Shown one piece after another: positions 4,100-58,729 of a stretch of DNA of 64,000 bases. Position 1 is the stretch's first letter, and every line of letters starts with the position of its first letter. The notes beneath the pieces were generated by a model. That model was not told where the DNA came from. It made no database searches and saw only the letters and a list, made by a program, of their open reading frames with translations. Source of the stretch: an uncultured Gemmatimonadales bacterium (GTDB lineage Bacteria; Gemmatimonadota; Gemmatimonadetes; Gemmatimonadales; GWC2-71-9); contig CAVZZO010000003.1 of NCBI GenBank assembly GCA_963779755.1, forward strand, positions 352,001 through 416,000, written 5' to 3'. The position numbers and the translations under genes were made by a program.

Positions 4100-4990
4100 A
4101 TGCGACCTTCAACAATCGCCCTCCTTTTCCTGATCGCAGCCGTAACGCCTGCCGGAGCCCAGCAACTCCCGCTGGGCGACGGCCACGTCTCCGACCATCC
4201 TGAAACCGGTTACGTATATGCGTGCCAGAGCAGCTTCCGGGTTGGCGGGGCCCGTCACGATGGACCCTGGATTCAGGATGCCCGCTGGGATCCCGCGGCG
4301 AAGCCGCACGTGAGCGGGCGGGTCATGTGGCCGCAGGCCAGCTTTGTGATGTCGTCTTCCCACGGCGACGCTCTGCTGATGGTTGAGGGCAACGGGCTGC
4401 CGGTGAATCAGCCGACGGGCACGTTCCCGATTTCCCCGAGTGACCCTGTCTACCGCTACGATACCAATCCCAACACAATTGCCGGGCAACACCTCGACTT
4501 CAGCATTCCCGCGGCGCCGGAACGGGCCGACCGGCCGAGTTGCCTCCCCATGGGCATGATCGGGTTCACCACCACCGGGGTCGCCATCTACAACGCCCTG
4601 GACGACGCCGGGCGCGATGCGGCCGCCCACGAAATCCAGGACCTGTGCGACGGCCATCCCCAGGCCCGGGGACAATACCATTACCACAGCAGCTCCCCTT
4701 GCCTCCCCGGGGCCGGAAGCGATTCCGTGGTGGGCTGGGCGCTGGACGGCTATCCCATCCTGGGGATGCGCGACGCCCGCGGGACTCTGCTGACCAATGC
4801 CCGCCTCGACGCGTGCCACGGCCGCGCCGAGTCGCTCACGGTGGATGGCCGGACCTACGACTACGCCTACCGCCTCACCCGGGAGTATCCTTATATGCTG
4901 GGGTGTTACCGGGGAACCGTGCCTTCGACTACTCTCCGGGCCATTCGCCGGGGGCTGGGTCCGCCGCGCCGCGGCGCGGGACACCCGTGA
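4100..4990 (+). CDS. YHYH-domain secreted protein
   Basis: Signal peptide, CDGHP...YHYH, GWALDGYPI and LDACHG motifs. Confidence 0.85.
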   Translation: MRPSTIALLFLIAAVTPAGAQQLPLGDGHVSDHPETGYVYACQSSFRVGGARHDGPWIQDARWDPAAKPHVSGRVMWPQASFVMSSSHGDALLMVEGNGLPVNQPTGTFPISPSDPVYRYDTNPNTIAGQHLDFSIPAAPERADRPSCLPMGMIGFTTTGVAIYNALDDAGRDAAAHEIQDLCDGHPQARGQYHYHSSSPCLPGAGSDSVVGWALDGYPILGMRDARGTLLTNARLDACHGRAESLTVDGRTYDYAYRLTREYPYMLGCYRGTVPSTTLRAIRRGLGPPRRGAGHP

Positions 4991-5037: not shown

Positions 5038-6546
5038 TTATCCTCGGCGGGTGCCGCCCAGAATGCCGCCCAGGATGCCGCGCATGATCTGGCGGCCGAC
5101 CTGGCTGCCGACGGTGCGCGCAGCCTGCTTGGCCATGGCCTCCACCATGCCCTGGCGGCGGCCGGTGCCCCAGAGAAGACTGTTGAGGCCGCCGCCCTGG
5201 TGTGGCTGGGATTTCCCCGCTTCCCCCCTGGGTCCCTGAGGGGCCGGGGCGGGAGCGGGCGCCCCTTCCGCGGCCGCCGCCCGGCGGCTCAGGATTTCAT
5301 AGGCCGATTCGCGGTTAACCGCGGTGTCGTACTTCCCTCCCACCGGGCTGCGTGAGCGTATGGCGGCACGTTCTTCGGTCGTGATCGACCCCATGCGGCA
5401 GCGCGGCGGACACATCAGGGTACGCTCGACCGGGAGTGGTATCCCCTTCTCCTGCAGGGTGGATACGAGGGCCTCCCCCACCCCGAGTTCCGCGATGACC
5501 CTGGCGACGTCGACCCCCGGATTGGCGGCGAAGGTCTCTGCGGCAGTACGGACCGCTTTCTGGTCTCGCGGGGTATAGGCCCGCAGGGCATGCTGGATCC
5601 GGTTGCCGAGCTGTCCCAGGATCTCGTTCGGTACGTCGTCCGGGAACTGGGAACAGAAATACACCCCTACGCCCTTGGAGCGGATGATGCGCACTACCTG
5701 CTCCACCCGCTGGCGCAGGGCGGGGGGCGCATCATCGAAGAGGAGATGTGCCTCATCGAAGATGAATATCATCTTCGGCCGTTCCAGGTCCCCGACTTCC
5801 GGGAGGTTCTCGAACAGCTCGGAGAGCAGCCACAGGAGAAAGCTGGAGTAGAGGTGCGGCTGGAGAACAAGCTGGTCGGCCGCGAGAATGCTGATGACGC
5901 CGCGGCCCGAGAGATCGGTGCGCATCAGGTCGGCCAGGTCCAGCGCCGGCTCGCCGAAGATGCCTTCCCCACCCTCCCGATCGAGGCCCAGCAGGGCGCG
6001 CTGGATGGCCCCGACGGACGCGGTGCTGACCAGGCCATAGCGGGTGCTGATCTCCTGTCGGTGCTCGGCCACGAAGCCCAGCAGGGCGCGGAGGTCGTCG
6101 AGATCGAGGAGCAGCAGACCCTGGTCGTCCGCCAGCTTGAAGCCGATCTCCAGCACGCCCTCCTGGGTGCCGTTGAGCTCGAGGATCCGGCTCAGCAGGG
6201 CCGGCCCCATTTCGCTCACCGTGGTTCGGACCGGGTGCCCCAGTTTGCCGAACAGGTCCCAGAAGAGGACGGGACTTCCTTCCGGGGCATACCCCTCAAT
6301 ACCAATCTGCTGCACCCGCTGCTGGATCTTCTCGTTGGCGGCCCCGGGCATGGCCAGTCCCGCGACATCGCCTTTCACGTCGGCCATGAAGACCGGAACC
6401 CCGAGCCGCGACAAGCCCTCGGCCAACAACAGCAGCGAGACGGTCTTGCCCGTTCCGGTGGCACCGGCCACCAGGCCGTGCCGGTTGGCATACCGGGCCA
6501 GCAGGTAGACCTGGTGTTCACCGTTGCCGAGGAGGATCTCGTTCAC
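5038..6546 (-). CDS. HerA-like ATPase, DUF853/YjgR family
   Basis: NRHGLVAGATGTGKT Walker A, FIFDEAHLLF Walker B, C-terminal RGILGGILG. Confidence 0.9.
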   Translation of the reverse strand: MNEILLGNGEHQVYLLARYANRHGLVAGATGTGKTVSLLLLAEGLSRLGVPVFMADVKGDVAGLAMPGAANEKIQQRVQQIGIEGYAPEGSPVLFWDLFGKLGHPVRTTVSEMGPALLSRILELNGTQEGVLEIGFKLADDQGLLLLDLDDLRALLGFVAEHRQEISTRYGLVSTASVGAIQRALLGLDREGGEGIFGEPALDLADLMRTDLSGRGVISILAADQLVLQPHLYSSFLLWLLSELFENLPEVGDLERPKMIFIFDEAHLLFDDAPPALRQRVEQVVRIIRSKGVGVYFCSQFPDDVPNEILGQLGNRIQHALRAYTPRDQKAVRTAAETFAANPGVDVARVIAELGVGEALVSTLQEKGIPLPVERTLMCPPRCRMGSITTEERAAIRSRSPVGGKYDTAVNRESAYEILSRRAAAAEGAPAPAPAPQGPRGEAGKSQPHQGGGLNSLLWGTGRRQGMVEAMAKQAARTVGSQVGRQIMRGILGGILGGTRRG

Positions 6547-14171: not shown

Positions 14172-14708
14172 ATGTACGCGGATCCTTTCGGGTTGAGAGG
14201 CTGTCCAGATGTTACGGGAACTGACCCGAATAGTCTAGACGATTGTCCGGAGCGATCCCCAGGTTACTATGCTGCTCGCATTGCCAAGGGTGAAGGTAGC
14301 AGGGTGTTGAATACGGCTTTGGGAGTACTCGCCACGATGGGTCAGGTGCTGGCGGAGCATACGACGGGGAGTGTCACAGTCGGTGAAGAAAGTATCGAGA
14401 CGGATGCCTATGGACTCACGGGTGGACTGGAAAATGGCAATACCAGAGTAGTGCAACGAGTCGGACTTCCCCAGATAGGAGGAAGCCTCGGATTCACTGT
14501 TGGGAATCCGGGTACTGGCGCCGTTGATTTTGGATGGAGCAAGCATCTCGGCATCACGATTCATACCGTGCCCAGTCCTGAAGGCGGCGGAATCTCTGGA
14601 ATCACCTTCAATCTCGGAATCGGCACACCGACCCTTATCGGCATCCAGGACCGGACAGTCGTGTCGCAACCGATTCCCAAATGCCTCGTCTCATGTGCAC
14701 ATGAGTAG
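14172..14708 (+). CDS. Orphan Rhs-type toxin C-terminal tip A (Gly-rich)
   Basis: Begins MYADPFGL, matching the YxDPxGL motif that ends the Rhs core; followed by an overlapping small gene. Confidence 0.7.
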   Translation: MYADPFGLRGCPDVTGTDPNSLDDCPERSPGYYAARIAKGEGSRVLNTALGVLATMGQVLAEHTTGSVTVGEESIETDAYGLTGGLENGNTRVVQRVGLPQIGGSLGFTVGNPGTGAVDFGWSKHLGITIHTVPSPEGGGISGITFNLGIGTPTLIGIQDRTVVSQPIPKCLVSCAHE

Positions 14709-14937
14709 TCTACTTGGGTGGTTTCTGGTTGCCGGGGGAATTTTCTACATCGGCGCTGCTGCGTTCGACTGGATTGGGCGAGCAGCAAGTGTGCCCATCG
14801 TGAAGTGGCTTATCCTGCCGCTCCGCATAGGTGAAATACGCTGGGTTGGTGGTGGCAATCGACGATTTGCCGCTACCCTCGGCATCTTTCTTCTAGTCAT
14901 CGGCTTGCTACTCGTCTTGTTCGGTCCTGAACGATAG
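14701..14937 (+). CDS. Putative two-TM immunity protein (Imm17-like)
   Basis: MSSLLGWFLVAGGIFYIGAAAFDW...; overlaps toxin stop; Imm17 resemblance is from recollection and needs an HMM check. Confidence 0.6.
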   Translation: MSSLLGWFLVAGGIFYIGAAAFDWIGRAASVPIVKWLILPLRIGEIRWVGGGNRRFAATLGIFLLVIGLLLVLFGPER

Positions 14938-14945
14938 GCTGCCGA

Positions 14946-15435
14946 AGGAGCCGGCCTCGTCTAGCCTGGGGCGCTCGCAGTGCCTCCGGGTTGTCGGGCC
15001 TGAGCTCCGAGGGGTCGGGTCTAGTTAGGAGCCTCGCGGGCTGCCGCGCGTGGCGGACCTCGGCCGGCGGAAAAGGAAAGTGGTGGGGGCCCCACGAGTT
15101 CAGCGGAACCCATCGGCTCCAGACCTGCCGCGAGCCGGCTCCCTCGTCGGGCGTCATGCGCCCACGGGAGCAGACGGGGTCACCCCACCGGCTCCAAGGT
15201 GCTACCCGGTCCTTCGATTGTCAAAGAGCGCCGCGTTCCGCGTGCCGGCGGGATCCTGGCACCACCCTCATAGGTCGTTGAGGCTCGGGGCCTCCCACAT
15301 CTTCATGGATGCTCTCCGATCCGCGGCCGGGCGGCCAGCAACACTCTGTGCGCGGAGCTCACCGAAGACGCCGGCGGCTCAAGGCAAATAGTGGGCGGCC
15401 CGGCCGCGCACGCGCGGCTCCCCACCGATCTCCGG
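14946..15435. ncRNA. Candidate bridge/seekRNA-encoding non-coding region of the IS110 element (copies at 23197-23687 and 29671-30156)
   Basis: Conserved, hairpin-rich, no credible ORF, downstream of the recombinase as in IS1111-type elements; contains GTCTAGTTA (15019-15027) matching the insertion junction. Confidence 0.55.
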
Positions 15436-16704
15436 CTATTCGCTCACCACCGGCTCTGCCCGATGCCGCTGCGCCTCCCAGCGCTCCCGCTCGAACGGCT
15501 GGCCCGAGTGGAGTACGGCCAGGAGGAGCGGCACCAGCTTGCGCGCCACCGCACAGACCGCCTTGGTCCGGAGCCCGCCATTGCGGGCCAGCAGGGCCTG
15601 ATAGTACGCGCGGTAGAGCCCCCGGGGCTGGCACCAGCGGCCGCCCAGGAGGAACAGCTGGCGGCGGAGCAGCGGCCGGCCCCGTTTGGACTGTTTGCGC
15701 CGCCCCTGCACGCTGCCGCTGGAACGCTCGACCAGATTCATGCCTGCGAGTTTCAGCACCTGGCGGGGATGAGTGAAGCGCTCCGGAGTGCCCAGCTCGG
15801 CCACAATCGTAGCCGCACAGGTGGCACTCACCTCGGGAATGGTGGTCAGCGCCTTGGCGGCGGGACACTGCTCCACCAAGGCGGCGATCTGCTGGTTCAA
15901 CACCGCGAGCTGCTCCCGCAGGAGGTCCCAGCGGGCCAGGAGCTGCTGGATCTCCAACCGCCGCTCGGGAGCGGCGTCGGCCAGGGCGACACTGGTGCGG
16001 GCGGACTCGCGCAGGACGTGGAGCCGCTCCGGGCCCACGTGGCCCCGCGAGACGGACCGCGCCAGGCGCGTCACCGCGGCCGGGGCGGCCGCCAGGAAGT
16101 CCTGCGGCAGCGGCCAACGCGCCAGCAGGGCGCGCGGGGTGGGCTTGCGCACCTGCGAGAAGTGCGTCAGGAACTCGGGCCAGGCCAGGTCGAGCAGGCT
16201 CTGGAGACGGTTCTTGAACCGGGTTTCCTCGACGGTTAACCGGTGCCGGTGGGTGGTGAGCAGCCGCAGCTCGAGATACGGGGGCTGCAGCGCCGGATAT
16301 CCCACGAAGATCCCCAGGCTCACCAGCTTGCAGATCTCGGCGGCATCCTTCGCGTCCGTCTTGTTGGGGCTGTTATCCTCCAGTTCCTTGGCCCGCTTGG
16401 TGTGGGCCGGCAGGATATTGACCAGCGCATAGCCGCGCGCCCGCAGGCACTCGGCAAACGTGAAGCCGTGATGGCCGGCGAACTCCAGCCCCACCAGCAT
16501 CTGTCCGGGCCGGATGCCGGGAAACCAGGCCGTCAACTGCGCCGCGGCGGCCTCGAAGCCCGCGCGGCTCACCGGCACCCGGACCGGCTTCGTGCGGCGC
16601 CCATCGGGGCCCTGAGCAACCAGCACGTGGACCCGCTTCGCGGTATCCACGCCTACGTGAACGGGGAACGTGCGGGTATAGGCAGACTTTTCGTCGGGGG
16701 TCAT
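15436..16704 (-). CDS. IS110-family recombinase/transposase
   Basis: DEDD residues in HVGVDTAK, GLEFAG and KTDAKDA; C-terminal SSGS serine motif and AVARKL; ATG at 16704 has GGAG RBS (ORF track extends to 16731). Confidence 0.95.
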   Translation of the reverse strand: MTPDEKSAYTRTFPVHVGVDTAKRVHVLVAQGPDGRRTKPVRVPVSRAGFEAAAAQLTAWFPGIRPGQMLVGLEFAGHHGFTFAECLRARGYALVNILPAHTKRAKELEDNSPNKTDAKDAAEICKLVSLGIFVGYPALQPPYLELRLLTTHRHRLTVEETRFKNRLQSLLDLAWPEFLTHFSQVRKPTPRALLARWPLPQDFLAAAPAAVTRLARSVSRGHVGPERLHVLRESARTSVALADAAPERRLEIQQLLARWDLLREQLAVLNQQIAALVEQCPAAKALTTIPEVSATCAATIVAELGTPERFTHPRQVLKLAGMNLVERSSGSVQGRRKQSKRGRPLLRRQLFLLGGRWCQPRGLYRAYYQALLARNGGLRTKAVCAVARKLVPLLLAVLHSGQPFERERWEAQRHRAEPVVSE

Positions 16705-16800
16705 GGCGCGGCTCCGGGTGGAGGGAATCACAGGAGTCGCGGAAGGAGCTACGGGCCGCGCAGCGGCGTCAAGCGGGTATAGATGTCTAGTTAAGCGACT

Positions 16801-17107
16801 ATGCTCGGGTTGCGTACTTCACGGGGAGGTCAAGACTCCGCTCTCTTCTGCGGGGAGGCTCGACTCGAGGCCGGGGTGCTCCTGCGGCGACTCCGGCGGG
16901 GCGAGAAGCTCGGGCTCCCGCACTCCCGACCGATACCGGGACTCGGCCGGCGGTGTCAAGAGTTGCGGATTCCCGACCAAGGACGCCACCTGGCGGATCA
17001 TCTATCGGCTCGATCGAGACGCAATCGTGATTGTGGAGGTCTTTGCGAAGAGCCAAGCGACTCCACAACAGGTCCTGGCCACGTGCGCGCGGCGGCCGAA
17101 CCACTAG
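16801..17107 (+). pseudogene. RelE/HigB (Gp49-like) toxin, frameshifted
   Basis: LHGEVKTP, ARLEAGVLLRRL...PHSRP and WRIIYRLDRDAIVIVEVFAK lie in different frames. Confidence 0.7.
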
Positions 17108-22047: not shown

Positions 22048-22265
22048 GCCGAGATACGCAGAGGCTCGCGGATTACCGCCTGGCCGGCGAGGGACTCCTC
22101 AGCGAGGGTGCGGTTGGCCTCCAGGACAAGGTGAATTGCCTCCTGGAGATTCTGCCGGGCCTCGTCGAGGGTTGCACCCTGGGTATTCGCGCCCGGCAGC
22201 TCCTCTACGAAACCGATATACCCCTCGGGAACCTCTTGGAAAACGGCCGTAAGCTGGAGCTGCAT
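22044..22265 (-). CDS. HicB-family antitoxin (short)
   Basis: VEELPGANTQGATLDEARQNLQEA. Confidence 0.85.
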   Translation of the reverse strand: MQLQLTAVFQEVPEGYIGFVEELPGANTQGATLDEARQNLQEAIHLVLEANRTLAEESLAGQAVIREPLRISA

Positions 22266-22447
22266 GGGGGCTCCTCCTTGGAGCCTGAAATATAGCGGCG
22301 ACCGGTCCCTGACGCTTAACGAAGTGCGCGTGTGCTGCGGCGCGAACCCGCGCTCCTTCACAAACCTACGTTTCCACAGCGCGACAGCTAGATCCCCGGG
22401 AGATGCGCCGCCAGCCCGCGCGACCGGCCCGTCAGAACGACGCGCTC

Positions 22448-22903
22448 ATGTACGCGGATCCTTTCGGGCTGCTTGCCCAGGATTGTTGTATCGAAACGGG
22501 GGATTGGCGAAAGGATAACCTGCTTCACCCTGCTGTCTACAGCGGCAAGAGAGACAACCCGATGCTGGGAGTAGCTGTGGGTCTCCTGGCCGTTGCAGGT
22601 GGGGCCGAACTGGCTGCTCCCAGGTTATTTGCCGCGGCCACCGCTGCTCTTCCTAAGGTACCGTTTGAGAAATTCCAGGACTGGGGACGAAATGTTGTCC
22701 AATGGGGCCGTGGGGCAGCGGGGGCAATTCAGCGGGTTTCTGAAGTGACGGCCGAGCAGGCCTCTAAATTGGATCCACAGAAAGTGAAGATGGCTCGCGA
22801 CTTCTACCAGAAAGCTGTTGATGCTGGCCGAGGGGGAGCCGCCGCACCCGAACGAGTAAAGCTGATGGAACGCATTTTAGACCTGCAGCAGAGAACCCAT
22901 TAG
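22448..22903 (+). CDS. Orphan Rhs-type toxin C-terminal tip B (DUF4951-like C-terminus)
   Basis: Begins MYADPFGL, hydrophobic middle, WGRGAAGA...RDFY...RVKLM; DUF4951 resemblance is from recollection. Confidence 0.7.
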   Translation: MYADPFGLLAQDCCIETGDWRKDNLLHPAVYSGKRDNPMLGVAVGLLAVAGGAELAAPRLFAAATAALPKVPFEKFQDWGRNVVQWGRGAAGAIQRVSEVTAEQASKLDPQKVKMARDFYQKAVDAGRGGAAAPERVKLMERILDLQQRTH

Positions 22904-22949
22904 TGGCTCGGTCCGGTCTATTCGAGCATTGCAACACGGAGGAAGAGCC

Positions 22950-23198
22950 ATGCTGGAAGCAGCGGTCACACTTCGGCTTACGAATAGATGCGAAACTGCG
23001 CGGAAGCTCGTGATTGAGCCATGGACCACCGAGTTTCGACTGCAACCTGGGCACACTTACGACTTGGTGATATCAGGGGACCTTGGCCTCCCCTTAGAGG
23101 TTGAGTTCGAGGACGACGAACTAACCGTATACACTTTCGATTCCGCCAATGCCTCCTTCAAGATTTCCGAAGGCGGGGCTGAACTTAAACCACTGTAG
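22950..23198 (+). CDS. Putative immunity protein B
   Basis: GGAGG RBS, small acidic protein after the toxin, IEPW motif shared with 40756-41010. Confidence 0.65.
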   Translation: MLEAAVTLRLTNRCETARKLVIEPWTTEFRLQPGHTYDLVISGDLGLPLEVEFEDDELTVYTFDSANASFKISEGGAELKPL

Positions 23199-23687
23199 GA
23201 GCCCGGCCCTGTCTAGCCTGGGGCGCTCGGGGCGCCTCCGGGTTGTCGGGCCTGAACTCCGAGGGGTCGGGTCTAGTTAGGAGCCTCGCGGGCTGCCGCG
23301 CGTGGCGGACCTCGGCCGGCGGAAAAGGAAAGTGGTGGGGGCCCCACGAGTTCAGCGGAACCCATCGGCTCCAGACCTGCCGCGAGCCGGCTCCCTCGTC
23401 GGGCGTCATGCGCCCACGGGAGCAGACGGGGTCACCCCACCGGCTCCAAGGTGCTACCCGGTCCTTCGATTGTCAAAGAGCGCCGCGTTCCGCGTGCCGG
23501 CGGGATCCTGGCACCACCCTCATAGGTCGTTGAGGCTCGGGGCCTCCCACATCTTCATGGATGCTCTCCGATCCGCGGCCGGGCGGCCAGCCATACTCTG
23601 TGCGCGGAACTCACCGAAGACGCCGGCGGCTCAAGGCAAATAGAGGGCGGCCCGGCCGCGCACGCGCGGCTCCCCCCCGGTCTCCGA

Positions 23688-24956
23688 CTATTCGATCACC
23701 ACCGGCTCTGCGTGATGCCGCTGGGTCTCCCAGCGCTCCCGGTCGAACGGCTGGCCCGACTGGAGCACGGCCAGGAGGAGCGGCACCAGCTTGCGGGCCA
23801 CCGCGCAGACCGCCTTGGTCCGGAGCCCCCCGTTACGGGCGAGCAGGGCCTGATAGTACGCGCGGTAGAGCCCCCGGGGCTGGCACCAGCGGCCGCCCAG
23901 GAGGAACAGCTGGCGGCGGAGCAGCGGCCGGCCCCGTTTGGACTGTTTGCGCCGCCCCTGCACGCTGCCGCTGGAACGCTCGACCAGATTCATGCCTGCG
24001 AGTTTCAGCACCTGGCGGGGATGAGTGAAGCGCTCCGGAGTGCCCAGCTCGGCCACAATCGTAGCCGCACAGGTGGCACTCACCTCGGGAATGGTGGTCA
24101 GCGCCTTGGCGGCGGGACACTGCTCCACCAAGGCGGCGATCTGCTGGTTCAACACCGCGAGCTGCTCCCGCAGGAGGTCCCAGCGGGCCAGGAGCTGCTG
24201 GATCTCCAACCGCCGCTCGGGAGCGGCGTCGGCCAGGGCGACACTGGTGCGGGCGGACTCGCGCAGGACGTGGAGCCGCTCCGGGCCCACGTGGCCCCGC
24301 GAGACGGACCGCGCCAGGCGCGTCACCGCGGCCGGGGCGGCCGCCAGGAAGTCCTGCGGCAGCGGCCAACGCGCCAGCAGGGCGCGCGGGGTGGGCTTGC
24401 GCACCTGCGAGAAGTGCGTCAGGAACTCGGGCCAGGCCAGGTCGAGCAGGCTCTGGAGACGGTTCTTGAACCGGGTTTCCTCGACGGTTAACCGGTGCCG
24501 GTGGGTGGTGAGCAGCCGCAGCTCGAGATACGGGGGCTGCAGCGCCGGATACCCCACGAAGATCCCCAGGCTCACCAGCTTGCAGATCTCGGCGGCATCC
24601 TTCGCGTCCGTCTTGTTGGGGCTGTTATCCTCCAGTTCCTTGGCCCGCTTGGTGTGGGCCGGCAGGATATTGACCAGCGCATAGCCGCGCGCCCGCAGGC
24701 ACTCGGCAAACGTGAAGCCGTGATGGCCGGCGAACTCCAGCCCCACCAGCATCTGTCCGGGCCGGACGCCGGGAAACCAGGCCGTCAACTGCGCCGCGGC
24801 GGCCTCGAAGCCTGCGCGGCTCACCGGCACTCGGACCGGCTTCGTCCGCCGGCCATCGGGGCCCTGGGCGACCAGGACGTGAACGCGCTTGGCGGTGTCC
24901 ACACCCACGTGGACGGGAAACCAGCGGGCGTAGGCGGACTTCTCATCGGGGGTCAT
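23688..24956 (-). CDS. IS110-family recombinase/transposase
   Basis: Near-identical to 15436-16704 with variant termini. Confidence 0.95.
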   Translation of the reverse strand: MTPDEKSAYARWFPVHVGVDTAKRVHVLVAQGPDGRRTKPVRVPVSRAGFEAAAAQLTAWFPGVRPGQMLVGLEFAGHHGFTFAECLRARGYALVNILPAHTKRAKELEDNSPNKTDAKDAAEICKLVSLGIFVGYPALQPPYLELRLLTTHRHRLTVEETRFKNRLQSLLDLAWPEFLTHFSQVRKPTPRALLARWPLPQDFLAAAPAAVTRLARSVSRGHVGPERLHVLRESARTSVALADAAPERRLEIQQLLARWDLLREQLAVLNQQIAALVEQCPAAKALTTIPEVSATCAATIVAELGTPERFTHPRQVLKLAGMNLVERSSGSVQGRRKQSKRGRPLLRRQLFLLGGRWCQPRGLYRAYYQALLARNGGLRTKAVCAVARKLVPLLLAVLQSGQPFDRERWETQRHHAEPVVIE

Positions 24957-25065
24957 AGCGCGGCTCCGGGTGGAAGGAATCACAGGAGTCGCGGAAGGAG
25001 CTACGGGCCGCGCCGCGGCGTCAAGCGGGTATAGATGTCTAGTTAGGCTTCACTGCGCATTCAAC

Positions 25066-28501: not shown

Positions 28502-28797
28502 GTTAGCAACCAGCTGCGCACGGCGGCCTAGGCTAGCCCGGAGCCCGCGCCCCGAAGCCCTGGCCGCCCGCTGGGAACGGTGCGGCGCGGGGACGGCCCG
28601 GTGGCGTGGAACTCTCACGGCACCTGCCCTGCCCCGACCGCGCCGGGCTCCAGAAGCCCTGGGCGGCGGATTCGTTTGAGCCTTTCTGCACGGAGGCGGG
28701 GCCGCCCGCAAGGAGTTGCTCTCGGGTTCCTGAGCTCCGCGGCCCTCATGGGGCCCACCAAAGAGACCCGCTGCGGTGCCTCGCTTGTGTTGCTAAC
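28502..28797 (-). other. ORF-less cassette family B (copies 39083-39376, 39503-39799, 41967-42263; variants 43182-43482, 46306-46612)
   Basis: ~295 bp, ends GTTAGCAAC and GTTGCTAAC, very GC-rich, no credible ORF. Confidence 0.8.
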
Positions 28798-28922
28798 GAA
28801 GTGCGCGTGTGCTGCAGCGCGATCCCTCAGGATTTCACAAACTTACGCTTCCACAGCCGCGCCGCCAGGAGGCCGGAGCATGGGCCCGCGGCCCGCGCGA
28901 CGGCCTGCAGAACGACGCGCTC

Positions 28923-29377
28923 ATGTACGCGGATCCTTTCGGGCTGCCTGCCCAGGATTGTTGTATCGAAACGGGGGATTGGCGAAAGGATAACCTGCTT
29001 CACCCTGCTGTCTACAGCGGCAAGAGAGACAACCCGATGCTGGGAGTAGCTGTGGGTCTCCTGGCCGTTGCAGGTGGGGCCGAACTGGCTGCTCCCAGGT
29101 TATTTGCCGCGGCCACCGCTGCTCTTCCTAAGGTACCGTTTGAGAAATTCCAGGACTGGGGACGAAATGTTGTCCAATGGGGCCGTGGGGCAGCGGGGGC
29201 AATTCAGCGGGTTTCTGAAGTGACGGCGAGCAGGCCTCTAAATTGGATCCACAGAAAGTGAAGATGGCTCGCGACTTCTACCAGAAAGCTGTTGATGCTG
29301 GCCGAGGGGGAGCCGCCGCACCCGAACGAGTAAAGCTGATGGAACGCATTTTAGACCTGCAGCAGAGAACCCATTAG
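28923..29377 (+). pseudogene. Toxin tip B, frameshifted copy
   Basis: Same as 22448-22903 apart from a 1-nt deletion near 29227 and a substitution near the start. Confidence 0.75.
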
Positions 29378-29423
29378 TGGCTCGGTCCGGTCTATTCGAG
29401 CATTGCAACACGGAGGAAGAGCC

Positions 29424-29672
29424 ATGCTGGAAGCAGCGGTCACACTTCGGCTTACGAATAGATGCGAAACTGCGCGGAAGCTCGTGATTGAGCCATGGAC
29501 CACCGAGTTTCGACTGCAACCTGGGCACACTTACGACTTGGTGATATCAGGGGACCTTGGCCTCCCCTTAGAGGTTGAGTTCGAGGACGACGAACTAACC
29601 GTATACACTTTCGATTCCGCCAATGCCTCCTTCAAGATTTCCGAAGGCGGGGCTGAACTTAAACCACTGTAG
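29424..29672 (+). CDS. Putative immunity protein B (copy)
   Basis: Identical protein to 22950-23198. Confidence 0.65.
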   Translation: MLEAAVTLRLTNRCETARKLVIEPWTTEFRLQPGHTYDLVISGDLGLPLEVEFEDDELTVYTFDSANASFKISEGGAELKPL

Positions 29673-30156
29673 GAGCCCGGCCCTGTCTAGCCGGGGCGCT
29701 CGGGGCGCCTCCGGGTTGTCGGGCCTGAACTCCGAGGGGTTGGGTCTAGTTAGGAGCCTCGCGGGCTGCCGCGCGTGGCGGACCTCGGCCGGCGGAAAAG
29801 GAAAGTGGTGGGGGCCCCACGAGTTCAGCGGAACCCATCGGCTCCAGACCTGCCGCGAGCCGGCTCCCTCGTCGGGCGTATGCGCCCACGGGAGCAGACG
29901 GGGTCACCCCACCGGCTCCAAGGTGCTACCGGTCCTTCGATTGTCAAAGAGCGCCGCGTTCCGCGTGCCGGCGGGATCCTGGCACCACCCTCATAGGTCG
30001 TTGAGGCTCGGGGCCTCCCACATCTTCATGGATGCTCTCCGATCGCGGCCGGGCGGCCAGCAACACTCTGTGCGCGGAGCTCACCGAAGACGCCGGCGGC
30101 TCAAGGCAAATAGAGGGCGGCCTGGCCGCGCACGCGCGGCTCCCACCGATCTCCGG

Positions 30157-31422
30157 CTATTCGCTCACCACCGGCTCTGCGTGATGCCGCTGCGCCTCCC
30201 AGCGCTCCCGCTCGAACGGCTGGCCCGAGTGGAGTACGGCCAGGAGGAGCGGCACCAGCTTGCGCGCCACCGCACAGACCGCCTTGGTCCGGAGCCCGCC
30301 ATTGCGGGCCAGCAGGGCCTGATAGTACGCGCGGTAGAGCCCCCGGGGCTGGCACCAGCGGCCGCCCAGGAGGAACAGCTGGCGGCGGAGCAGCGGCAGG
30401 CCCCGTTTGGACTGTTTGCGCCGCCCCTGCACGCTGCCGCTGGAACGCTCGACCAGATTCATGCCTGCGAGTTTCAGCACCTGGCGGGGATGAGTGAAGC
30501 GCTCCGGAGTGCCCAGCTCGGCCACAATCGTAGCCGCACAGGTGGCACTCACCTCGGGAATGGTGGTCAGCGCCTTGGCGGCGGGACACTGCTCCACCAA
30601 GGCGGCGATCTGCTGGTTCAACACCGCGAGCTGCTCCCGCAGGAGGTCCCAGCGGGCCAGGAGCTGCTGGATCTCCAACCGCCGCTCGGGAGCGGCGTCG
30701 GCCAGGGCGACACTGGTGCGGGCGGACTCGCGCAGGACGTGGAGCCGCTCCGGGCCCACGTGGCCCCGCGAGACGGACCGCGCCAGGCGCGTCACCGCGG
30801 CCGGGGCGGCTGCCAGGAAGTCCTGCGGCAGCGGCCAACGCGCCAGCAGGGCGCGCGGGGTGGGCTTGCGCACCTGCGAGAAGTGCGTCAGGAACTCGGG
30901 CCAGGCCAGGTCGAGCAGGCTCTGGAGACGGTTCTTGAACCGGGTTTCCTCGACGGTTAACCGGTGCGGTGGGTGGTGAGCAGCCGCAGCTCGAGATACG
31001 GGGGCTGCAGCGCCGGATATCCCACGAAGATCCCCAGGCTCACCAGCTTGCAGATCTCGGCGGCATCCTTCGCGTTCGTCTTGTTGGGGCTGTTATCCTC
31101 CAGTTCCTTGGCCCGCTTGGTGTGGGCCGGCAGGATATTGACCAGCGCATAGCCGCGCGCCGCAGGCACTCGGCAAACGTGAAGCCGTGATGGCCGGCGA
31201 ACTCCAGCCCCACCAGCATCTGTCCGGGCCGGACGCCGGGAAACCAGGCCGTCAACTGCGCCGCGGCGGCCTCGAAGCCTGCGCGGCTCACCGGCACTCG
31301 GACCGGCTTCGTCGCCGGCCATCGGGGCCCTGGGCGACCAGGACGTGAACGCGCTTGGCGGTGTCCACACCCACGTGGACGGGAAACCAGCGGGCGTAGG
31401 CGGACTTCTCATCGGGGGTCAT
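30157..31422 (-). pseudogene. IS110 recombinase, frameshifted copy
   Basis: Homologous to the other two copies but split across frames. Confidence 0.85.
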
Positions 31423-31508
31423 AGCGCGGCTCCGGGTGGAAGGAATCACAGGAGTCGCGGAAGGAGCTACGGGCCGCGCCGCGGCGTCAAGCGGGTATAG
31501 ATGTCTTG

Positions 31509-31934
31509 TTAGACAGTGCCCCGTACCTCCTGAACGCGTCCACCTACGACCGGGTCATATGGAGAAGGACACGGACATCTTGAGCCGGGCGGGCACGTGT
31601 TGCGTGTTAGCATCGCCGGTTGAAACCGGCAAGTCCTGATAGATGCAGCAGCTGCAGCCCCGAACCTGGCATCGGAAGCACTCAGAACCCGCACTGACGC
31701 GCTGTCCACGGACCCGCTTGAATCGACAATGAAGGCCAAGGAGACGGTCCCAGATACTCGGGCAACTCGTAAGGAAGGTGGATAGACGGGCTCTACGCAG
31801 CTGATGTAACGCGGGAGGCTATCGAGAGTTGAACCATCTAGGGCGGTGGCCGGCTGGTGCTTGCCAGCCCCAGGGATCCCGTTGGTAGCACAGGCTGCGA
31901 GGAGTAAGAACGCCACAGCTGTACTTCCTCTCAT
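31509..31934 (-). CDS. TonB C-terminal-domain lipoprotein (cassette; C-terminus possibly frameshifted)
   Basis: LAAC lipobox, PVYPPSLR...GTVSLAFIVDSSG...RFQPA. Confidence 0.7.
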   Translation of the reverse strand: MRGSTAVAFLLLAACATNGIPGAGKHQPATALDGSTLDSLPRYISCVEPVYPPSLRVARVSGTVSLAFIVDSSGSVDSASVRVLSASDARFGAAAAASIRTCRFQPAMLTRNTCPPGSRCPCPSPYDPVVGGRVQEVRGTV

Positions 31935-58655: not shown

Positions 58656-58729
58656 TAGCAGGGGTGGGACTCGAACCCACGACCCCGGCATTATGAGTGC
58701 CGTGCTCTAACCACCTGAGCTACCCTGCC
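58656..58729 (-). tRNA. tRNA with CAT anticodon, most likely elongator tRNA-Met
   Basis: GGCAGGGTAGCTCAGGTGGTTAGAGCACGGCACTCATAATGCCGGGGTCGTGGGTTCGAGTCCCACCCCTGCTA cloverleaf; CCA not encoded; Ile2 not excluded. Confidence 0.92.

Follow-up and report, generated by a model that had tools for sequence, protein, structure and literature searches.

A long, three-domain candidate guide RNA encoded 3′ of an IS110-family transposase gene and apparently aimed at attC-like sites

IS110-family RNA-guided recombinases are under development as programmable genome-insertion tools. The bridge RNA of IS621 is reportedly about 177 nt long. Published bridge RNAs span 150-250 nt, and those of IS621 carry their guides in internal loops, with a left guide of top-strand sense that includes the core and a right-donor guide of 4-7 nt that is antisense to the core and the left end (PMC11208160). 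The IS1111 subgroup is recognized by criteria that include subterminal inverted repeats of 7-17 bp, a transposase of 330-350 aa, and the motif GL-P----S(t)G (PMC11187229). Its seekRNAs, as described for ISKpn4, ISPst6, and ISPa25, are encoded downstream of the transposase gene and are retargeted naturally through changes in a few loop bases, and some IS110-type elements also carry a 3′ non-coding region (PMC11187229). A further relevant system is ISPpu9, an IS110-family element followed by the RNA-gene module ssr9; this module is delimited by end-like sequences and occurs once, several times, or alone (PMC12288879).

In the present work, we describe an insertion sequence whose 3′ non-coding region we regard, with good confidence, as the template of a bridge- or seek-type guide RNA for the IS110-family recombinase encoded next to it, transcribed in the sense of the transposase gene (minus strand). 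As read from its sequence and its relatives, this would be a long, three-domain, 3′-encoded bridge-type RNA found in a Gemmatimonadota-like clade and directed to attC-like sites at their R′ end. The mechanism is already known in kind, and the RNA is an unusually long relative of the bridge and seek RNAs described in 2024. Searches of the literature on IS110 bridge RNAs and attC, and on Gemmatimonadota integrons, returned no description of this lineage.

The insertion sequence and its attC-like setting

The window, i.e. the whole 64-kb stretch of DNA analysed, contains three copies of one element with ~97% mutual identity (14946-16796, 23197-25048, and 29671-31511). Comparison of the copies and of the points where their flanks diverge places copy 1 at 14959-16790 on the minus strand, with the hexamer CTAGAC (element sense) at each end (16790-16785 and 14964-14959); because one of these hexamers is the target's own, the exact boundary inside it is ambiguous. 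Copy 2 (23211-25042, minus strand) has an intact transposase, 98% identical in amino acids to that of copy 1, and its guide segment at 23271-23281. Copy 3 (29685-31508, minus strand) has a transposase frame that is broken several times, its guide segment at 29744-29754, and GTCTTG as its left junction. Copies 2 and 3 have in common about 900 bases of the upstream cassette at 96.7% identity (22230-23217 versus 28705-29691), and their downstream neighbours differ. The common cassette means that the window holds two independent insertions, and the left-hand (+ strand) flanks provide two independent cases, not three; copies 2 and 3 represent a duplication of cassette plus insertion sequence, rather than a separate transposition event. 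The left-hand flanks of copies 1 and 2 are only ~65% alike across ~37 nt, which would fit two related, short attC-like sites.

An attC-like array extends over positions 7075-48857, with 17 RYCTAAC and 17 GTTAGRY motifs on the + strand at a typical spacing of ~130 nt. No integron integrase was found among the window ORFs scanned; the array may be integrase-less, or its integrase may sit outside the window. On its two sides lie a gene for a HerA-like helicase (5038-6546, minus strand; PF05872, E 5e-217) and a tRNA gene (58656-58729, minus strand). Three cassette ORFs of 178, 151, and 112 codons (14172-14708, 22448-22903, and 28923-29261) share the start MYADPFGL and diverge completely thereafter. 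This arrangement of a conserved DPxGL-type junction and a variable tail presumably recalls orphan polymorphic-toxin tips. Every copy of the insertion sequence is placed at the 3′ (far) end of one such MYADPFGL cassette, the C-terminal parts of these ORFs being unrelated.

The transposase gene (15436-16704, minus strand) encodes a protein of 422 aa with a DEDD/RuvC-like N-terminal domain and a Transposase_20 C-terminal domain bearing the SSG serine motif, both domains being features of the IS110 family. It matches PF01548 (E 1.7e-24) and PF02371 (E 1.4e-16), scores 195.3 bits against the NCBIfam model NF033542, 'IS110 family RNA-guided transposase' (cutoff 140), and is a homologue of the structurally solved IS621 transposase, with which it aligns over both domains, including the serine motif (E 1.4e-20). 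Other features of the family are also present, namely no terminal inverted repeats, a short core at both junctions, and site-specific insertion. Between the left end (70 nt) and the right end (110 nt), the longest exact inverted repeat, only exact matches being counted, is 6 nt, a length reached by 468 of 500 shuffles. With the IS4321 transposase (plasmid R751), used as a stand-in for the IS1111 subgroup in the protein comparison, only residues 259-404, i.e. the C-terminal ~150 aa, can be aligned, at 24% identity, and the motif reads GMNLVERSSG, not GL-P----S(t)G. Of the five IS1111 characters compared, four (subterminal repeats, protein length, motif, and full-length relatedness) are absent, and one, the long downstream non-coding region, is present (477 nt versus 84 nt upstream, and ~380-510 nt in the relatives of all clades). 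The element belongs to the IS110 family and, judged by these five characters, is not IS1111-type, and the IS1111-type label of the first-pass annotation has to be dropped.

A tblastn search of 72,556 plasmids returned 247 records, all below 60% identity, the best being IS110-family genes of Priestia and Bacillus at 32.7%; the ten commonest organism names among the 247 records include no enterobacterial genus.

The 3′ non-coding region and its fold

The stretch singled out in the first-pass annotation is the 3′ non-coding part of this insertion sequence, since the transposase gene, on the minus strand, ends at 15436. It comprises 477 nt (14959-15435, minus strand), which we propose as the guide-RNA template. 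It had been described as ~490 nt conserved in all three copies, and this description is accurate: the copies agree at 466, 465, and 464 of the 477 columns (~97%), copy 3 having five single-base indels. The sequence details given at the time were also recovered, namely CCGAGGGGTCGG at 15007-15018, ACATCTTCATG at 15297-15307, and the variation GGCGC/GTGCC versus GGCGC/GCGCC between copies.

The relatives considered are 44 loci from a single scan of a genome collection. In the five closest (L001, L002, L007, L009, and L034), the whole non-coding region can be aligned at 67-72% identity. An nhmmer profile of its first ~215 nt, which we call Domain 1, is found after the transposase gene in 34 of the 44 loci and in all three window copies; 23 of these 34 sequences built the profile and therefore match it by construction. 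Rfam 15 was searched both at gathering and at permissive thresholds; only a tRNA matched in the window, and the best matches within 14800-16900 have E values of 8-9, far under the gathering scores. A scan of the region found no promoter. A terminator-like hairpin on the minus strand (15095-15083) is not kept in the relatives.

Open frames of 86-113 aa overlap the region, with up to 120 codons open in copies 1 and 2, and could point to a small protein, but long open frames are expected in G+C-rich DNA. Four overlapping ORFs have no Pfam match, the set of open frames varies among relatives, and indel lengths, both between relatives and in copy 3, are not divisible by three. We therefore rejected a coding role for 14959-15435, which we consider next to inconceivable.

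Domain 1 (15213-15427, minus strand) folds into four helices, P1-P4, and a hairpin, with an internal loop that would bind the donor. RNAalifold on 27 sequences gave four helices with 18 pairs, 11 of which show compensatory changes. Over these sequences, 95.5% of the cells are paired, versus 80.9% after shuffling, and 65 cells are altered on both sides, versus 17.8; neither figure is attained by any of 500 shuffles, and slid controls yield 36-47%. The octamer UUUGACAA (15218-15225, minus strand), at the 3′ margin of the domain, is nearly invariant in the 27 aligned relatives. It includes a perfect TTGACA (15224-15219), and a conserved -10 is absent outside the closest clade (c1); the octamer might be either an RNA motif or a -35-like element. 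Its conservation exceeds what the neighbouring helix requires.

Domain 2 (15080-15192, minus strand) consists of an invariant closing stem, GGUGGGG/CCCCACC, around a three-hairpin junction, and in our model it is likely a scaffold. It is followed by what we interpret as a target-binding module (15013-15059, minus strand). Here an outer helix of GGUC (15059-15056) and GACC (15016-15013) encloses an internal loop whose 5′ side is 13 nt long (15055-15043), and the inner hairpin AGCC-CGCGA-GGCU (15042-15030) separates this from the 3′ side of the loop. For Domain 2 and the module together, the fold of six sequences contains 45 pairs, 14 with compensatory changes (89.8% paired versus 84.7%, a value reached by 0 of 500 shuffles). 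Among 17 modules from 12 elements, which have the inner hairpin in common, one pair of the outer helix is U-A in nine and C-G in seven. Finally, direct reading defines a 3′ terminal unit (14959-15001, minus strand) made of AGGCCCGACAACCCGGAGG, a hairpin (14984-14970), and CC-AGGCU-AGAC (14969-14959). In copy 1 only, one position of this right-end hairpin is an A.C mismatch when read on the minus strand and would be a G.U pair on the plus strand; the hairpin pairs perfectly in copies 2 and 3 and in the relatives. The first-pass annotation had suspected that the length of the region leaves room for more than one guide loop, and further structured domains are indeed present.

As for the strand, the transposase sense is favoured by the surplus of G.U over A.C cells (30 versus 5 and 19 versus 8), a count that is biased because the structures were predicted on the strand later favoured. 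The fold energy of the single sequence is unremarkable and does not separate the strands (z -1.43 for minus, -2.19 for plus).

We also considered that the region might work as DNA, through transposase binding sites or subterminal repeats. The right end needs to be recognized as DNA anyway, and ACCCGCTTGACGCC at the left end and ACCCGGAGGCGCC near the right end show a weak direct similarity, the longest exact match being 7 nt, as found in 258 of 500 shuffles. However, compensatory changes that keep Watson-Crick and G.U pairs, in helices 100-270 nt apart, and an excess of G.U over A.C are signatures of RNA, and the inverted terminal repeats are not above chance. A function as DNA instead of RNA is therefore very improbable in our estimation, and we retain the reading as a guide RNA.

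Guide segments and their DNA partners

In element orientation, the right end closes in ...GCGCCCCAGGCTAGAC, and CTAGAC is found at both junctions. The contigs of three relatives start exactly at AGACATCT, as expected of a repeat boundary. The left end, AGACATCTATACCC (16775-16788, minus strand), holds ACATCT (16786-16781). On the + strand, the right-hand flanks of all three copies begin with the attC R′ consensus GTTRRRY (GTTAAGC, GTTAGGC, GTTAGAC), and all three copies lie, in one orientation, directly 5′ of AGTTAAGC, AGTTAGGC, or TGTTAGAC, at an R′ core. The occupied sites, whose left parts are short and atypical, are in register with 17 other R′-like sites.

The junction sequence also occurs inside the element, as the first-pass annotation had noticed at 15019: GTCTAGTTA is present five times in the window, versus 0.04 expected (0 of 100 shuffles reaching five), at the internal positions 15019, 23271, and 29744 and at the junctions 16785 and 25037, the third junction being GTCTTGTTA. 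A second GTCTAG, at 14959, had been listed along with it; this one exists, but it is not an internal guide, being the right end with the shared core.

The internal match belongs to CCUAACUAGAC (15019-15029, read 15029-15019 on the minus strand), which occupies the 3′ side of the module's internal loop, after the inner hairpin (15042-15030) and before the second strand of the outer helix (15016-15013). Being of one sense with the left flank and the core, it pairs with the + strand GTCTAGTTAGG of an attC R′ end. It is equal to the left flank followed by AGAC, giving an 11-nt match for copy 2 and a 9-nt match for copy 1. In 17 representatives, we compared the seven nucleotides before the module core with the left flank of the same element, both segments being read off by hand. 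The sum of contiguous matches is 44, versus 13.9±5.1 for shuffles, and the sum of identities is 73, versus 44.6±5.1, with none of 20,000 shuffles reaching either observed value. The guide position is equal to the element's own left flank in L006 (ACGAAACAC), L012 (AATTCACAC), L029 (AATTTACAC), L024 (ACGACAGACCT), L026 (TCTAACAC), L015 (ACGTAAC), and, by eye against the module listing, the L021 clade (AGTTA). Nine of the 17, all retained in the test, show only 0-2 contiguous matches: L007 (with 6/7 identical), L001, L034, L016, L019, L020, L013, L004, and L008.

A second segment, AGAUGU (15297-15302, read 15302-15297 on the minus strand), lies on the 5′ side of the internal loop of Domain 1, just 3′ of helix P4 and in the most conserved block of the domain, GUGAAGAUGUGU. 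Compared with ACATCT in the top strand of the left end, it is complementary at 6/6 positions in 17 of 20 elements, and at at least 5/6 in all 20. In L007 and L024, which belong to different clades, the left end is ACCTCT (A to C) and the RNA reads AGAGG(U/G) (U to G), i.e. two compensatory changes. Natural covariation thus supports the interpretation of CCUAACUAGAC as a left-target guide and of AGAUGU as a right-donor guide. The first-pass annotation had proposed a guide that specifies the attC site, had noted that the ACATCT segment at ~15297 resembles both element ends, and had named covariation of loop bases with target and donor as a check. The segment at 15019-15029 behaves as such an insertion-site guide, being the complement of the attC R′ core and four bases, the ACATCT segment corresponds to the second guide, for the left end, and both co-vary with their partners.

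In the definitions set for IS621, the bottom strand is the partner of the left guide and the top strand that of the right guide, so the polarities found here fit only a minus-strand RNA. Taken with the covariation of the helices, this supports the prediction that the region acts as a folded RNA of the minus strand, in the same sense as the transposase. Strand and loop, which had been left unassigned, can thus be given as the minus strand and the 3′ side of an internal loop.

The guide RNA might also be limited to the last ~240 nt (Domain 2 and the module, 15195-14959), with Domain 1 a separate entity; it could be a structure of the 3′ UTR, an RNA that regulates or binds the transposase or has another regulatory role, or it could carry an internal promoter. 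Such a length would agree with known bridge RNAs of ~150-250 nt (PMC11208160) and with the processed seekRNAs of 74-96 nt that are the predominant bound forms (PMC11187229), and six members of the clade have CAnnTT-like hexamers 17 nt on from the invariant TTGACA (15224-15219). But the promoter scan was negative, no -10 is conserved beyond the c1 clade, and it is Domain 1 that carries the segment complementary to, and co-varying with, the left end. We consider this shorter guide RNA unlikely and keep Domain 1 as part of the predicted guide RNA.

Other guides were looked for by eye. For the right target, three places yielded no guide, namely the module loop on its 5′ side, the hairpin loops of Domain 2, and the 3′ loop side of Domain 1; the only matches there are G+C-rich or palindromic (GCCGGC, GGAGCCGG) and occur without tracking flanks. 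In the first of these places, the sequence does not follow the right flank. Likewise, no left-donor guide separate from the right end itself was found. The right end shares with the guide module the form hairpin-CC-5 nt-AGAC, and it might possibly serve as a self-templated left-donor guide. The variable segment of Domain 1 (~15355-15330) was also tried as a guide and rejected, as an own-versus-other comparison revealed no association with left flank or right end, whichever sense was taken (observed 85 versus 85.0, 83 versus 79.7, 51 versus 49.2, and 52 versus 50.6; p 0.57, 0.12, 0.23, and 0.31); the duplicates L027 and L028 were left out of the flank set, and L026, L027, and L028 out of the right-end set.

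Compared with IS621, the arrangement is similar in that both guides lie in internal loops, the left guide is of top-strand sense with the core included, and the right-donor guide, 6 nt here, is antisense to the core and the left end (PMC11208160). Unlike in IS621, the RNA is encoded 3′ and not 5′ of the gene, the two guides are ~270 nt apart in separate domains, and the loop sides are swapped, with the right-donor guide on the 5′ side and the left-target guide on the 3′ side. The 477-nt region also exceeds the 150-250 nt of published bridge RNAs (PMC11208160), and has over twice the length of the long seekRNA, 154 nt (PMC11187229). With the IS1111 seekRNAs, it shares the position downstream of the transposase gene, the order of the segments (the one complementary to the top strand 5′ of the one complementary to the bottom strand), and natural retargeting through a few loop bases, and the element resembles the attC-targeting ISKpn4, ISPst6, and ISPa25 in taking one attC end as its target, in a fixed position and orientation (PMC11187229). 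It differs from IS1111 elements in having no subterminal inverted repeats and a transposase of 422 aa instead of 330-350 aa (PMC11187229), which aligns with that of IS4321 only in its C-terminal part and lacks their motif. The protein thus appears IS110-like, as judged by the transposase comparisons, while the position of the RNA and the order of its guides appear IS1111-like, as judged by the 3′ placement and the loop sides.

The mechanism that we propose would begin with an RNA that is produced from this region and bound by the recombinase. The internal loop of Domain 1 would offer AGAUGU to the left end as the right-donor guide, Domain 2 (15192-15080) would act as a scaffold, and the 3′ module (15059-15013) would present CCUAACUAGAC on the 3′ side of its internal loop as the left-target guide. 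This guide, the complement of the attC R′ core GTTAGG and of CTAG, would pair, at the insertion site, with the strand that is the bottom one in element sense, and close in the AC core; the right half of the target would presumably be read as well. The complex of recombinase and RNA would then bring the circular donor junction and the attC R′ end together, and strand exchange would take place at AC. The left-target guide terminates in AC and the right-donor guide begins opposite AC, and AC is probably the exchanged crossover dinucleotide. Seven empty attC R′ ends in the window (21147, 25596, 36362, 37364, 40719, 43953, and 47076) match eight guide bases (CTAGTTAG; CUAACUAG), and all seven have CG just before the match, where occupied sites have GT (+ strand, i.e. 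AC in element sense); they appear to be natural near-miss sites.

Repeated modules and retargeting in the clade

Hundreds of transposase relatives exist at 62-76% identity, and the few that are named are Gemmatimonadota. Most have one conserved 28-nt left flank with the motif GGGCACAACCCGAACGGATCGG... (L001, L004, L010, L012, L013, L015, L016, L019, L021, L024, L025, L027, L028, L029, and L034). Its reverse complement reads as the codons (N/S/T)(Y/F)(S/T)DPFGL(C) with third-position (wobble) variation, which indicates that the family mostly targets a coding motif, and this DPFGL motif is the same as the one that begins the cassette ORFs of the window. The window lineage and L007 have a CCUAAC guide and are sited at GCCTAAC sites. 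We interpret the switch from DPFGL-motif sites to GCCTAAC sites, on the evidence of these guides and flanks, as a natural retargeting of a five-base address. In L012, L013, L014, L021, and others with the DPFGL target, a conserved CGAUCCGG is found on the 5′ side of the module loop, antisense to CGGATCG, a stretch of the left flank situated 9-15 nt from the core; it might serve as an additional, top-strand guide to that flank.

Six relatives (L006, L012, L029, L024, L014, and L011) have two guide modules with different five-base addresses, of ACGAA and AATTC types. The modules of L006 are at 4112-4143 and 4227-4258; its flank agrees with the first module, that of L012 with the second. In other relatives, the 3′ unit (AGGCCCGACAACCCGGAGG, hairpin, and GCUAGAC) or its end part is doubled in tandem (L002 ~1800-1920, L009 ~4190-4292, and L007 ~4210-4300), or the AGGCCCGACAACCCGGAGG motif alone is found beyond the first GCTAGAC (L001 and L034), so that the right ends of these five are uncertain. 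These observations recall ISPpu9 and its downstream ssr9 module; unlike in our proposal, the small RNA of ISPpu9 is reported to be dispensable for transposition (PMC12288879). The tandem 3′ units here are only 40-60 nt.

The repeated units bear on another origin for the internal GTCTAGTTAGG, namely that a shorter ancestral element ended at 15019, that the 60 bases down to 14959 are captured flank, and that the match is a fossil, left from what was once an end or a target copy. Elements of the L019 and L021 clades terminate exactly at a module core, the 3′ unit is duplicated in L002 and L009, its motif AGGCCCGACAACCCGGAGG alone is found past GCTAGAC in L001 and L034, and ISPpu9 is a published IS110 element with a separately mobile downstream module (PMC12288879). 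Moreover, the right flanks in the c1 clade have NN-GGCC at seven of nine junctions, which the RNA immediately past the guide core mimics, in a stretch paired within the outer helix. However, real flanks lack what is constant in the module, namely the preceding GAGGCYCC, the following YCGRCC, and the compensated helix and hairpin, so the module match is not a copied flank; the variable five nucleotides follow the element's own flank across clades with different targets, and an RNA fold would not survive in a fossil. We judge a mere relic to be improbable and CCUAACUAGAC to be a guide, though the two are not exclusive, since a captured end may have turned into a guide.

A more speculative extension, which we put forward tentatively and think more likely wrong than right, is that the guide RNA of this clade is built of repeated cassette-like modules, each with a hairpin, CC, five variable bases, and the core. 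It would be a natural multi-address bridge RNA whose placement and guide order are of IS1111 type and whose recombinase is of IS110 type. The right end would itself be one such module, internal modules would be spare addresses, one RNA could serve two target variants, and a swap of five bases would have moved the window lineage from the ...Y.DPFGL motif to attC ends. If the right end is indeed its own module, the DNA half-site and its guide would be one sequence and could never drift apart.

In published accounts, whether the RNA lies 5′ or 3′ is bound up with the split between IS110 and IS1111. The known design space is widened by the present element, because it joins an IS621-like recombinase of 422 aa to a 3′ RNA of more than twice the usual length, with guides in separate domains and a repeated 5-nt address module, and its clade offers a natural retargeting series. 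It would also represent a second, apparently independent insertion-sequence lineage aimed at integron attC sites, which bears on the disruption and rearrangement of cassette arrays.
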